Of a stretch of DNA of 64,000 bases, positions 57,001-63,000 are shown piece after piece. A program made the position numbers. How positions within the stretch are numbered: the first letter of the stretch is position 1; the number at the start of each line of letters is the position of its first letter. Source of the DNA: Escherichia coli O127:H6 str. E2348/69 (GTDB taxonomy: Bacteria > Pseudomonadota > Gammaproteobacteria > Enterobacterales > Enterobacteriaceae); NCBI RefSeq assembly GCF_000026545.1, contig NC_011601.1; one strand, written 5' to 3'.

Positions 57001-60000
57001 GATTGCGCAGGTTCGTCAGTATGTGGATGAAAAAAGCAGTGAAATCATCTCGACGACAGACAAAAAACTGGGCGAGCAGGAAGCAACAATCCAGCAGATA
57101 CAAAAGGTTCAGACAGACACCAGTAATAACCTGAACAGTATGTGGGCCGTGAAACTGCAGCAGATGCAGGATGGTCGCCTTTACATTGCGGGTATCGGTG
57201 CCGGTATTGAGAATACCCCTGACGGTATGCAGAGTCAGGTGCTGCTGGCGGCAGACAGGATTGCGTTCATTAATCCGGAGAACGGTAACACCACTCCAGC
57301 ACTGGTCACGCAGGGGGGACAGACGTTTATCAATGAAGCGCTGATTAAGACCCTTATTGCTCCCACAATTACCAGCGGTGGCAGTCCTCCGGTATTTTCC
57401 CTGACATCAGACGGAAAGCTGACCGCTAAAAATGCGGATATCAGTGGCAGTGTGAATGCGAACGCCGGGACGCTCAACAATGTCACGGTAAATGAAAACT
57501 GTACGATTAAGGGCATGCTGGAGGCGACTCAGGTCAGAGGTGACTTCGTTAAAGCTGTATCCAAATCATTTCCGAAACAGGCTGGTACGTGGGGTAACAC
57601 GGAAACACCAAACGGGACGGTTACAGTCACCATCAGCGATGATCATAACTTTGACCGTCAAATCATTATTCCGCCCATTATCTTTAACGGAATAGCGTAT
57701 AGCTATCCGGGAAGTGGTAATAACCCGGGAGGTACAAGTTACACGGGTTATGGTTTTGAAGTTCGCAAAAACGGTGTATTAATCGCATCCAGAGAAACTA
57801 AAGGGGCCATTCCCGGTAGTTACAGTGCAGTTATTGATATGCCTAGTGGTGGTGGTAGCGTCACTCTGGAGTTTAAGATTTTCCAGAAAGGCAATCAGGG
57901 GGCAGGCAATATCACCGACTGTACGGTGATTGTGACCAAAAAAGCGGCTTCCGGCATCAGTATTCGTTGAAATTGTTATAACCCATATAAGGGCACCAGA
58001 AATGGTGCCTTTTTTATTGCAGAAAAGCGAGAGGTAATTATGCGTAAAGTTTGTGCAGCCATTTTGTCCGCAGCCATCTGTCTGTCCGTATCCGGTGCGC
58101 CTGCATGGGCGTCTGAACATCAGTCCACACTGAGCGCGGGGTATCTTCATGCCCGGACGAACGCTCCCGGTAGCGATAATCTTAACGGGATTAACGTGAA
58201 ATACCGTTATGAATTTACGGACACGCTGGGGCTGGTGACGTCATTCAGCTATGCAGGAGACAAGAATCGCCAGCTTACCCGTTACAGCGATACCCGCTGG
58301 CATGAAGATTCCGTGCGTAACCGCTGGTTCAGCGTAATGGCGGGGCCGTCTGTGCGCGTGAATGAATGGTTCAGCGCGTATGCGATGGCGGGTGTGGCTT
58401 ACAGCCGTGTGTCGACTTTCTCCGGGGATTATCTTCGCGTAACTGACAACAAGGGGAAAACGCACGATGTGCTGACCGGAAGTGATGACGGTCGCCACAG
58501 CGACACCTCTCTGGCGTGGGGAGCTGGCGTGCAGTTTAACCCGACCGAATCCGTGGCCATTGATATTGCTTATGAAGGCTCCGGCAGTGGCGACTGGCGC
58601 ACTGACGGTTTCATCGTGGGTGTCGGTTATAAATTCTGATTAGCCAGGTAACACAGTGTTATGACAGCCCGCCGGTTCAGGCGGGCTTTTTTGTGAGGTG
58701 AATATGGCAGTAAAGATTTCAGGTGTACTGAAAGACGGCACAGGAAAACCGGTACAGAACTGCACAATCCAGCTGAAAGCAAAACGTAACAGTACCACGG
58801 TGGTGGTGAACACGGTGGCCTCAGAAAATCCGGATGAAGCCGGGCGTTACAGCATGGATGTTGAGTATGGCCAGTACAGCGTCACCCTGCTGGTTGAAGG
58901 TTTTCCTCCTTCGCATGCCGGGACCATCACCGTGTATGAAGATTCTCAGCCGGGTACGCTGAATGATTTTCTCGGTGCCATGTCGGAGGATGACGTCCGT
59001 CCGGAGGCACTGCGTCGCTTTGAACAAATGGTGGAAGAGGCAGCGCGTCACGCCGGGGAGGCGAAGAAGAATGCCGGAGAGGCGGAGACGTCAGCGAGGA
59101 ATGCCGGCATATCAGCCAGTCAGGCAGAAGAGAGCGCGGCAAATGCTGACACTTCAGCAGGGGAGGCATCGGAGTCAGCCCGGCAGGCGGCAGAAAGTGC
59201 AGCCGCTGCAAAGAAGTCAGAGGAAGCGTCCTCGTCCTCGGCCTCTGAGGCCGCTCAAAAAGCCAGTGAGTCATTACAAAGTGCAGCAGATGCTGAGTTG
59301 TCAAAAAAGACGGCAGAAAGTGCAGCCGGTAATGCAGCCAGGGATGCAACGACCGCAGCAGAAAAAGCCCGGGAGTCAGCAGAAAGCGCACAGTCAGCGG
59401 AACAAAGCAGGATAGCGGCGGAAGACGCCGTAAACCGAATCCCCACCGTGGTGGGACCTCCCGGGCCAAAGGGAGAACCGGGGCCCGCGGGTCCTCAGGG
59501 GCCGAAGGGAGATAAAGGAGAGCGTGGCGACACCGGTCCTGTCGGGGCAACCGGTGAGCGGGGACCGGCAGGTGATGCTGGTCCGGCAGGCCCGCAGGGG
59601 CCGAAAGGCGACAGGGGAGAGCGGGGAGAGACCGGTCTGACGGGAAATGCAGGTCCACAGGGTCCAAAGGGAGATACCGGTGCGGCAGGTCCGGCAGGCC
59701 CACAGGGACCGAAAGGAGAAACAGGTGCGGCTGGCCCGGTGGGGGCAACCGGACCTCAGGGACCAAAGGGCGACCCGGGGGAGACACAAATCCGTTTTCG
59801 TCTGGGGCCGGCGAGCATTATTGAGACAAACAGCAATGGCTGGTTCCCGGATACAGATGGCGCACTCATCACCGGACTGACCTTTCTTGACCCCAAAGAT
59901 GCCACACAGGTTCAGGGGCTGTTTCAGCATTTGCAGGTCAGGTTTGGTGACGGGCCATGGCAGGATGTTAAGGGACTGGATGAAGTGGGCAGTGATACAG

Positions 60001-63000
60001 GCAGTAGTGGAGAATGACATGAATATTTTGAGAAAGCTTATGCAGAGTCTGTGCGGTTGCGGAAAGCATGATGACTGTGAAAACGGGCAGTCGCTTACAG
60101 CACAACTGCGACTGGGACCGGCAGACATTCTGGAGTCAGATGAGAATGGCATTATTCCAGAGCAGGACAGGGTAATCACACAGGTGGTGATACTGGATGC
60201 AGATAAAAAGCAGATACAGTGTGTGGTAAGACCGCTGCAAATCCTGCGTGCTGACGGGACGTGGGAAAATATTGGCGGGATGAAATAGCCGACGGGTTCA
60301 CAAAAAAACCGGAGTCCGGCTCCGGTTTTTGTTGTCATGCCATGGTGATGTTTGTTATGACTCCCTGTGTTTGGAATGAATATTTAAATAGGGAGTTTTG
60401 TCATGCCATCATTAGTTTCAGGTATTCAATCATCCTCACTTTCCACCGGAATGCAGGTTCTTCGTGCTCAAATGGCCGCCAGTGGTGGTGGAGAAATTAC
60501 AGTAGGCGGACAGACGGTTAGTATCACATATAGTGAAACGGATGGTCGCTTTCTGGCGAGTGGGGGCAATAACAGTTTGCTTTCTGGATTATTACTTACA
60601 GGGCTTAATGGTGGTCCTGAAGCGCTCAGGGATATAATGTTAAGAATGGTTTCAGGTTCAGGTAACACACAATCACATGGTGATATTGAGGGGAAAATAT
60701 CACAATATAAGTTTTCGGTTAATACGCAGAGCCTTCAGTGCCCATCCGAGGCGGTTCGATGCCCAATTATACTGGATAAGCCAGAAGAAGGTGTGTTTGT
60801 TAAAAATTCAGAAGATTCTTTGGTTTGTACCTTATTTGATTCGGTTTCTTTTTCTCATTTGGTTCGTGACGGTGGGAGGCACCCGCTAACACGAGAACCA
60901 ATAACGTCATCAATGATTGTAAGTCCAGAACAATGTATTTATGACCAAGCCAAAGGAAACTTTGTCATAAAGGATAAGTGAAATAAATATTACCCAAGCT
61001 ATATGTTAACTGCCAGTTGCTTATATGAAATGCTACAGATGTTCAGGGTATAAGGATGTGGTAATAACACAGGTGGTGTACTGGATGCAGATAAAAAGCA
61101 TATACAGTGAGTGGAGAGGCCGCTAATCAGTCGTGCTGACGGGGAAATATTGGCGGGATGAAATAGCCGACGAGTTCACAAAAACCGGAGTCCGGCTCCG
61201 GTTTTTGTTGTCATGTCCGGTGGATGTTTGTTAGGAAAGCAAAGATGGCAAAACTGCTGGAGGTTTTGTGGTTGAGTATGCCAATATAATTAATAGATTA
61301 AAGAGTTAGTTGTGAAGAAAATATGGATAAACAGGACGACGAATGCTTTCACCGATAAGGACAACTTTCCATAACTCAGTAAATATAGTGCAGAGTTCAC
61401 CCTGTCAAACGGTTTCTTTTGCAGGAAAGGAATATGAGTTAAAGGTCATTGATGAAAAAACGCCTATTCTTTTTCAGTGGTTTGAACCTAATCCTGAACG
61501 ATATAAGAAAGATGAGGTTCCAATAGTTAATACTAAGCAGCATCCCTATTTAGATAATGTCACAAATGCGGCAAGGATAGAGAGTGATCGTATGATAGGT
61601 ATTTTTGTTGATGGCGATTTTTCAGTCAACCAAAAGACTGCTTTTTCAAAATTGGAACGAGATTTTGAAAATGTAATGATAATCTATCGGGAAGATGTTG
61701 ACTTCAGTATGTATGACAGAAAACTATCAGATATTTATCATGATATTATATGTGAACAAAGGTTACGAACTGAAGACAAAAGAGATGAATACTTGTTGAA
61801 TCTGTTAGAGAAAGAGCTGAGGGAAATTTCAAAGGCGCAGGATTCTTTGATTTCTATGTATGCAAAGAAAAGAAATCATGCATGGTTTGATTTCTTCAGA
61901 AATTTAGCCTTATTAAAAGCAGGAGAGATATTCAGGTGCACATATAATACAAAGAATCACGGTATTTCATTCGGGGAGGGGTGTATCTATCTTGATATGG
62001 ATATGATACTTACAGGTAAGCTTGGTACAATATATGCTCCTGATGGAATTTCAATGCATGTGGATCGTCGTAATGATAGTGTAAATATTGAAAATAGTGC
62101 AATAATTGTTAACCGTAGTAATCATCCTGCTCTACTTGAGGGACTTTCTTTTATGCATAGTAAAGTAGATGCTCATCCATATTATGATGGTTTGGGGAAA
62201 GGAGTTAAGAAATATTTTAATTTTACACCATTACATAATTATAATCATTTTTGTGACTTTATTGAGTTTAACCACCCTAATATAATCATGAACACAAGTC
62301 AGTATACATGCAGTTCATGGTAAATGAATTTGATATAGTTTATTTTGTTGTAATAAATGATTTGCAGGGTATTAGATATAAACATGAAAATTCCCTCATT
62401 ACAGTCCAACTTCAACTTTTCCGCCCCGGCAGGATACTCTGCTCCCATTGCTCCTAATCGTGCTGAAAATGCCTATGCGGATTACGTTTTGGATATAGGT
62501 AAGCGAATACCACTTTCCGCAGCAGATTTAAGCAACGTATACGAAAGTGTAATACGCGCCGTCCATGACAGCCGTAGCAGGCTTATCGATCAGCATACAG
62601 TCGATATGATCGGCAACACTGTACTTGATGCTTTGAGCCGATCACAGACATTTCGTGATGCCGTAAGCTATGGCATTCATAATGAGAAGGTACACATTGG
62701 TTGCATTAAATACAGAAACGAATACGAGCTTAACGAAGAATCTTCTGTCAAAATTGATGATATTCAATCACTAACCTGTAACGAATTATATGAATATGAT
62801 GTCGGGCAAGAGCCAATTTTCCCCATTTGCGAAGCAGGAGAAAACGATAACGAAGAGCCTTATGTCAGTTTTAGTGTTGCGCCAGATACTGACTCTTATG
62901 AGATGCCATCGTGGCAGGAAGGACTGATTCACGAGATTATTCATCATGTTACTGGATCTAGCGATCCATCTGGAGATAGTAATATAGAGTTAGGACCCAC

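Follow-up and report, generated by a model that had tools for sequence, protein, structure and literature searches.

A probable EPclA-type collagen side tail fibre and its companion PfC gene in a lambda-like prophage of Escherichia coli O127:H6 E2348/69

A window of 64,000 nucleotides from the chromosome of Escherichia coli O127:H6 strain E2348/69 (contig NC_011601.1) contains the late region of a lambda-like prophage, in which a side tail fibre gene, stf, is followed directly by a small open reading frame (ORF) of 89 aa. The stf product is very probably a collagen-containing fibre of the EPclA type, with the small ORF as a separate gene that encodes a second copy of the fibre's C-terminal domain, PfC. 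The fibre is already known: its family was described in 2012 and E2348/69 is a reference genome, and this copy adds nothing new to that description. Lambdoid prophages with these fibres move genes for Shiga toxin (Stx) and for type III effectors from one E. coli strain to another, and the receptor specificity of the fibre bears on the spread of virulence genes. The small PfC gene of the locus shows tighter conservation than the tip of the fibre does.

The stf gene (58704..60017, plus strand; RefSeq WP_012578868.1) encodes 437 aa that match the Pfam families PF08400, PF01391, and PF06820 and PHROG 366 and 3279 (tail fiber). Our ORF list placed the start at a GTG at 58698; the ATG at 58704 agrees with the start of lambda Stf (MAVKISG) and with the RefSeq call, and the gene stops with TGA at 60015–60017. 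The N-terminal collar domain, PfN, which anchors the fibre to the tail, occupies aa 1–133 together with the first helix (58704..59102; PF08400, 233.6 bits, model positions 1–133 of 134). Comparison of aa 1–93 with chain Ta of PDB 9e7m, the gpStfN collar of Ur-lambda solved by cryo-electron microscopy, revealed 87/93 identical residues (E 8e-54). A first-pass annotation of this DNA had proposed that the N-terminus of lambda Stf was kept, which is confirmed by this match and by 75% identity to lambda orf-401 over the first 160 aa. This similarity continues as far as the beginning of the Ala/Ser-rich region, and homology ends at about aa 160. In the same annotation, the fibre body was described as replaced by a low-complexity region and the Gly-X-Y triplets. 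The distal body is indeed different, modular, and collagen-bearing, but an Ala/Ser-rich part is present in lambda Stf too. Since homology runs into that part, the coiled coil is common to both fibres, with only the distal half replaced.

Residues 134–250 (59103..59453) constitute PCoil, a predicted Ala/Ser/Glu-rich trimeric coiled-coil stalk assigned from its composition and periodicity. Its 117 residues include 38 Ala, 22 Ser, and 16 Glu, and the autocorrelation of Ala/Ser positions over aa 101–250 was highest at a lag of 7 (0.48), as expected of a coiled coil. The collagen domain, Col, follows at aa 251–361 (59454..59786) with 37 unbroken Gly-X-Y triplets. The Pfam Collagen model (PF01391) scored 65.7 bits (E 3e-18), so far over its cutoff of 27.2 that the match is not a product of chance. 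About 36 uninterrupted triplets at 59453–59778 had been noted previously; the unbroken tract stands, while its count and coordinates are corrected here. In 18 of the 37 triplets the X residue is Pro, and the unit GPQGPKG occurs five times, at triplets 5, 16, 23, 28, and 34. The DNA encoding the tract carries degenerate repeats of 45 and 67 nt; the tandem-repeat analysis that had been suggested as a check on the tract, performed with Tandem Repeats Finder, returned only a 45-nt unit in two copies at 82% match plus short fragments, and no clean array.

The fibre ends in PfC (aa 363–426, 59790..59981), a C-terminal trimerisation knob and the probable receptor-binding end, which matched the complete PF06820 model (positions 1–64 of 64) with 123.1 bits against a curated cutoff of 25 bits. 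Amino-acid variation among relatives is concentrated in this domain, at a handful of positions. The last 11 residues (aa 427–437, 59982..60014) form a C-terminal tail that has no counterpart in the small ORF and is nearly invariant in relatives; its last codons carry the ribosome-binding site (RBS) of the next gene.

Relatives of the locus were collected, giving 70 copies in total drawn from loci in IMG/VR, from phage 434, and from the E2348/69 window. Every one of the 34 copies whose N-terminus is complete has 37 collagen triplets, as do 19 partial copies. One locus (L010) has 30 triplets and lacks exactly seven, those separating the GPQGPKG unit of triplet 16 from that of triplet 23; with these units as its boundaries, the deletion is the outcome expected of unequal recombination between them. 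In another fibre (P0123, 374 aa), it is the coiled coil that is shorter, by 63 residues or nine heptads. Published collagen domains of EPclA range from 63 to 144 aa and differ from one another by multiples of three residues throughout (Ghosh et al. 2012, PLoS One 7:e37872, Table 3). The collagen tract can thus change its length in frame, although one length dominates. The earlier suggestion that the tract is recombination-prone and may modulate fibre length agrees with the published range and with the 30-triplet locus, and it is tempered by the single length found in every complete copy.

The EPclA family has been characterised in detail. Ghosh et al. (2012) listed EPclA in Table 2 with 437 aa, a PCoil domain of 116 aa, and a collagen domain of 111 aa in most lambdoid prophages of O157:H7. 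Recombinant EPclA from strain Sakai is a trimeric dumbbell; circular dichroism revealed both a genuine collagen triple helix, which melts at 42 °C, and a trimeric coiled coil, with a hinge between the two, and the PfC domain trimerises alone and lets the collagen refold quickly (Ghosh et al. 2012). Phage 434, phage cdtI, lambda_2B8, and numerous Stx1 and Stx2 phages carry the stf and small-ORF pair of E2348/69, with 94–97% identity at the nucleotide level. Because its domain architecture is identical to that of EPclA and the pair is this close to those of phage 434 and the Stx phages, we infer that the E2348/69 fibre likely forms a trimer with a collagen triple helix and a coiled coil.

A working model of the fibre can be built on these comparisons. 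In Ur-lambda, twelve collar copies ring the junction of gpV and gpM and give rise to four trimeric fibres (PMC12617516), and by homology twelve collar domains would ring the tail at the same junction here, again giving four trimeric fibres. Each fibre would run from an Ala/Ser-rich three-stranded coiled coil through a flexible hinge into a collagen triple helix of 37 triplets, and would end in a beta-rich PfC knob. The helix would form without hydroxyproline, and its stability may be attributed to Pro at the X position and to charged residues. PfC would trimerise by itself and nucleate collagen folding from the C-terminal end, and its variable positions suggest that it is the likely surface of contact with the host. 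Rare unequal recombination between GPQGPKG units could alter the length of the fibre in frame. The 89-aa gene, contained in the same terminator-bounded unit, would supply a second, free-standing PfC with a Cys-containing leader of 27 residues.

The small ORF (60019..60288, plus strand; RefSeq WP_001024006.1) encodes a free-standing PfC paralogue of 89 aa, homologous to Sp5 ORF68 and phi24B gp59. Residues 28–89 (60100..60285) matched PF06820 with 123.3 bits, and the full length (1–89 of 89) matched PHROG 576 (E 8.8e-61). The same residues align with the Stf C-terminus at 39% identity over 62 residues (E 3e-15), in line with the previous observation that stf stops at 60017 and is followed by a separate, related ORF. 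The PfC part is predicted to be all-beta, with a predicted local distance difference test (pLDDT) score of 70–80. The leader, MNILRKLMQSLCGCGKHDDCENGQSLT (27 aa, 60019..60099), is predicted by AlphaFold2 to form a short helix at residues 3–12, at low confidence, followed by a CGCGKH motif. Among 29 protein variants, C12, C14, and H17 of the leader are conserved and C20 is variable. The leader stretch MNILRKLMQSLCGC contains a lipobox-like LCGC and was considered as a lipoprotein or other signal peptide and rejected on inspection of the sequence; its hydrophobic stretch is too short and is polar, and the phage 434 annotation pipeline, which included LipoP and SignalP, called the gene a chaperone and not a lipoprotein.

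The arrangement of the two genes is constant. The small ORF starts one base past the stf stop, with its RBS (GGAG, 60009..60012; read in the sequence and annotated in phage 434) lying within the 3' end of stf. All 70 copies encode 89 aa, and 69 of them begin one base after the upstream stop, the 70th being located at a contig end. In all 64 copies whose 5' flank is sufficiently intact, the preceding gene has a PfC-type C-terminus. The junction from RBS to ATG, GGAGAATGACATG, is identical in every copy that has 30 upstream bases (69/70). By this layout, the small ORF is translationally coupled to stf. Ratios of nonsynonymous to synonymous change (dN/dS) were 0.13 for the whole small ORF, 0.05 for its PfC part, 0.23 for its leader, and 0.28 for the last 78 codons of the fibre; these are pooled pairwise Nei-Gojobori estimates without phylogenetic correction, and the contrast is large nonetheless. 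Synonymous divergence (pS) is 0.14 in both PfC regions, and the PfC part of the small ORF is almost invariant. By this measure, it is under strong purifying selection.

The small gene is not restricted to EPclA-type fibres. It is also located 3' of the EPclB fibres of short-tailed Stx phages, and locus L085 holds a non-collagen fibre of about 212 aa, with a very divergent PfC, whose end is overlapped by the gene for a 79-aa homologue (P0128). The pairing of the small gene with these two other fibres indicates that the association is old and independent of collagen. Its distribution is frequent within the species, with 697 of 5426 complete E. coli genomes (~13%) carrying the gene at a median of 10 copies per genome. 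The family itself is narrow: a profile search of 1.84 billion representative proteins recovered only 88 clusters, mostly Escherichia or Escherichia-like fragments.

Additional PfC arrangements were seen among the relatives. A non-collagen fibre (MSKIERYQGNLRAF…) is overlapped by a small PfC gene in L085 (110–974), L086 (4971–5535), and L088 (198–732); in L086 and L088 the small gene is cut to 45 aa, and NleG-like and SopA-like effector genes adjoin. A 565-aa protein, P0150, contains four tandem PfC-like modules of about 75 aa (…VVVLDAD…GILQVRRADGTW.EIPALKG) followed by a collagen tract. Judged from this sequence, other phages evidently place PfC-like units in front of collagen, like beads in a row, and not at the fibre end as a cap.

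Published work on related phages bears on what the small protein does. In Sp5, Mondal et al. (2016, PMC5155283) noted ORF68 (89 aa), made in-frame deletions, and found the fibre gene ORF67 to be essential. A 2026 preprint on phi24B (bioRxiv 10.64898/2026.04.10.717836) resolved the EPclB-type lateral fibre gp61 and included a virion proteome; its main text does not mention the small gene. The supplementary peptide table lists two peptides from purified virions, VITQVVILDADKK and ADGTWENIGGMK, both identical to the E2348/69 small protein. They are assigned there to 'gp59_start' and to hypothetical gp61-gp59 fusions from the search database, one of which was labelled 'Spike or just gp59?'. The small protein is thus made and co-purifies with virions at a low level.

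Our tentative interpretation is that the small protein is a non-essential accessory at the PfC end of the fibre, where it could, for example, cap the fibre or modify its binding. A more specific form, on balance doubtful, would have it as a trimeric mini-knob made from the late genes that docks on the PfC end and alters receptor binding or prevents fibres from sticking to one another. Docking could perhaps involve the invariant acidic C-terminal tail of the fibre and the basic, Cys-containing leader of the small protein. Such a mini-knob would fit the pairing with three kinds of PfC-ended fibre, the purifying selection, the phi24B peptides, and dispensability on rough K-12. Several observations weigh against this picture of the locus. 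Sp5 ORF68 is outside the nine essential genes, and its deletion gave no phenotype, with plaques and lysogens still formed on K-12 (PMC5155283). In the phi24B supplement, each gp59 peptide has 3 spectra against ~180 for the best gp61 peptides, and the protein could be a contaminant or substoichiometric. Among the relatives, fibre PfC variants and small-ORF variants displayed no covariation and occur in all combinations; together with the low peptide counts, this argues against a stoichiometric cap. The structure models are of moderate confidence only and carry no interface information, and in E2348/69 gpJ is frameshifted, so that the fibre may never sit on an infectious particle in this strain.

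Other roles for the small protein must be set against this accessory interpretation. The gene occupies the position of lambda tfa and is coupled to stf, and the phage 434 record names its counterpart 'tail fiber assembly chaperone'. It could therefore be a functional analogue of lambda Tfa that aids folding of the fibre C-terminus and is then mostly released, and low abundance in phi24B virions would suit such a protein. However, the 434 genome paper offers no evidence for the name, and BLASTP of the small ORF against lambda orf-194 (Tfa) gave no alignment at E<=100. No chaperone family matched it either, Pfam returning only PF06820 and NCBIfam nothing. No help from the small ORF is needed for recombinant EPclA to form stable trimers in E. 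coli, its PfC refolds the collagen alone, and in Sp5 it is the fibre gene and not ORF68 that is essential. A chaperone role, above all an obligatory one, is unlikely. Mondal et al. (2016) suggested instead that ORF68 is a reservoir of sequence for tip variation, which would make the small ORF mainly a silent PfC cassette that recombines into stf. Chimeras of the expected kind exist: in P0063 (L083 4–291), collagen triplets are fused in frame to the small-ORF PfC, with an 11-nt microhomology (gggaccggcag) present in both sequences, and P0133 joins the N-terminal half of the small ORF to the C-terminal half of the fibre PfC. Such chimeras are rare and come from contig ends or fragmentary sequences, P0063 itself beginning at a contig end. 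A silent cassette would need no start codon, RBS, or leader, yet all three are conserved; selection acts on the protein (dN/dS 0.05), and peptides are listed for phi24B. Because the small-ORF PfC is nearly invariant and the fibre PfC is the variable one, no diversity is stored in it. A cassette function as the main role is thus unlikely, and we rate it as quite improbable.

The remaining alternatives concern the fibre as much as the small ORF. A programmed +1/-2 frameshift could extend the fibre into the small ORF and yield a minor form with two PfC domains. The frame of the small ORF is open for 46 codons 5' of its ATG in 67/68 copies, and the phi24B authors searched fusion models of gp61 and gp59, with one hit among them. 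The open frame may simply follow from the conserved stf sequence beneath it and is uninformative. No slippery site was recognised by reading 59887–60017, Mondal et al. (2016) reported no frameshift signal in Sp5 (PMC5155283), and a good RBS and ATG are conserved at the small ORF; in addition, both phi24B peptides fall inside the 89-aa ORF, and no junction peptide was found in the part of the supplement that was examined. Such an extension is very improbable. The first-pass annotation had raised a split or degenerate tip, in which a break in the fibre gene left the small ORF as a decaying relic of the original tip. The partly defective state of the prophage, with its frameshifted gpJ, is compatible with decay, but the fibre has a full-length PfC, and plaque-forming phage 434, phage cdtI, the Stx phages, and dozens of further loci share the two-gene layout together with its lengths and junction. 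Strong purifying selection on the small ORF, a paralogue rather than a fragment, is likewise at odds with a remnant, and this proposal is abandoned as scarcely tenable. Finally, the collagen-like protein could be a bacterial surface adhesin like streptococcal Scl or Legionella Lcl, as the adjoining virulence effector genes and weak NCBIfam matches to the Lcl, SclA, and SclB models might suggest. These matches scored 69.5–85.1 bits against cutoffs of 325–500, and only the collagen repeat aligned. Stf has a phage collar domain and lacks a signal peptide or anchor, its gene has a late-operon position and is flanked by terminators, no promoter-like site was found in 57900–60500, and a homologue, EPclB, has been placed on tail ends by immuno-electron microscopy. 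An adhesin is the least credible of the readings considered here.

The two plus-strand genes stand side by side with terminator hairpins on both flanks. An intrinsic terminator lies 3' of lom and just 5' of stf (58666..58692, plus strand; an 8-pair stem with 7 G-C pairs and a T run), where one is also annotated in phage 434, followed by the stf RBS (GAGG, 58695..58698), read in the sequence and annotated at the homologous position of phage 434. The pair is closed by a second intrinsic terminator (60300..60335, plus strand), a strong hairpin (-21.5 kcal/mol, z-score -3.6) with UUUUUGUUG directly after it, again annotated in phage 434. No sigma-70-like promoter was found in 57900–60500; an internal promoter for expression in the prophage state was thus rejected, and the simplest reading puts the pair on the late transcript. 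On the opposite strand, ORFs at 58927–59787 and 59394–60338 (286 and 314 aa) run antisense to the coiled-coil and collagen regions; they are absent from RefSeq and most likely arise only because the codon pattern of stf is repetitive and rich in G+C.

A query of 1701 bases from this locus is 100% identical to the E2348/69 chromosome. On one side, the chromosomal neighbours are the frameshifted J and lom; on the other, they are an NleG-family gene, nleB2, nleC, an nleH fragment, and nleD. The tail-tip gene J appears as three overlapping ORFs (54256–56223, 56211–56927, and 56924–57970), and RefSeq marks gpJ as frameshifted. The prophage is probably unable to build an infectious tail, though stf and the small ORF are intact. 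Type III effector genes begin directly after the fibre module with the NleG-family gene (60403–60981), followed by nleB2 (61343–62323) and nleC (62357–63376), after which the nleH fragment and nleD come next in the genome. This prophage is probably the PP4 of the E2348/69 genome paper.

Comparison with known systems places the E2348/69 locus closest to EPclA, for example ECs2717 of O157:H7 Sakai. The domain order PfN-PCoil-Col-PfC, the domain lengths, and the position in a lambdoid prophage are the same. The differences are the host, enterohaemorrhagic E. coli for EPclA and enteropathogenic E. coli (EPEC) O127:H6 here, and a few substitutions, with a C-terminus of SSGE in place of RTGE in EPclA; structurally, nothing differs. 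Lambda Stf shares the N-terminal collar, the start of the Ala/Ser-rich coiled coil, the position after J and lom, and an accessory role in adsorption. In contrast, its distal half is a gp37-like rod with an OmpC receptor-binding domain that needs Tfa, where E2348/69 has collagen and PfC; no Pf2 or gp37-like family matched Stf in Pfam, and lambda Tfa is unrelated to the gene downstream of stf.

Phage 434 (OL657226; CPT_434_23 and CPT_434_24) is 96.9% identical to E2348/69 over the nucleotides of the pair, and the two agree in their terminators, RBSs, and gene lengths. Phage 434 is viable and plaque-forming, whereas the E2348/69 prophage has a frameshifted J. Right after its fibre pair (4817–7697 of locus L001), this classical laboratory phage retains what is left of that effector cluster, namely an NleB pseudogene, two NleC-like genes, and, between these two, fragments of NleH and of an insertion sequence, so that phage 434 and the EPEC prophage have the whole right end of the late region in common. 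Among short-tailed Stx2 phages, ORF67/ORF68 of Sp5 and gp61/gp59 of phi24B present the same 89-aa PfC gene after a PfC-ended fibre. Their fibre is EPclB, of 645–682 aa, which differs in its collagen runs of 32, 20–31, and 38 triplets in related loci, in belonging to a podovirus tail, and in its N-terminal attachment.

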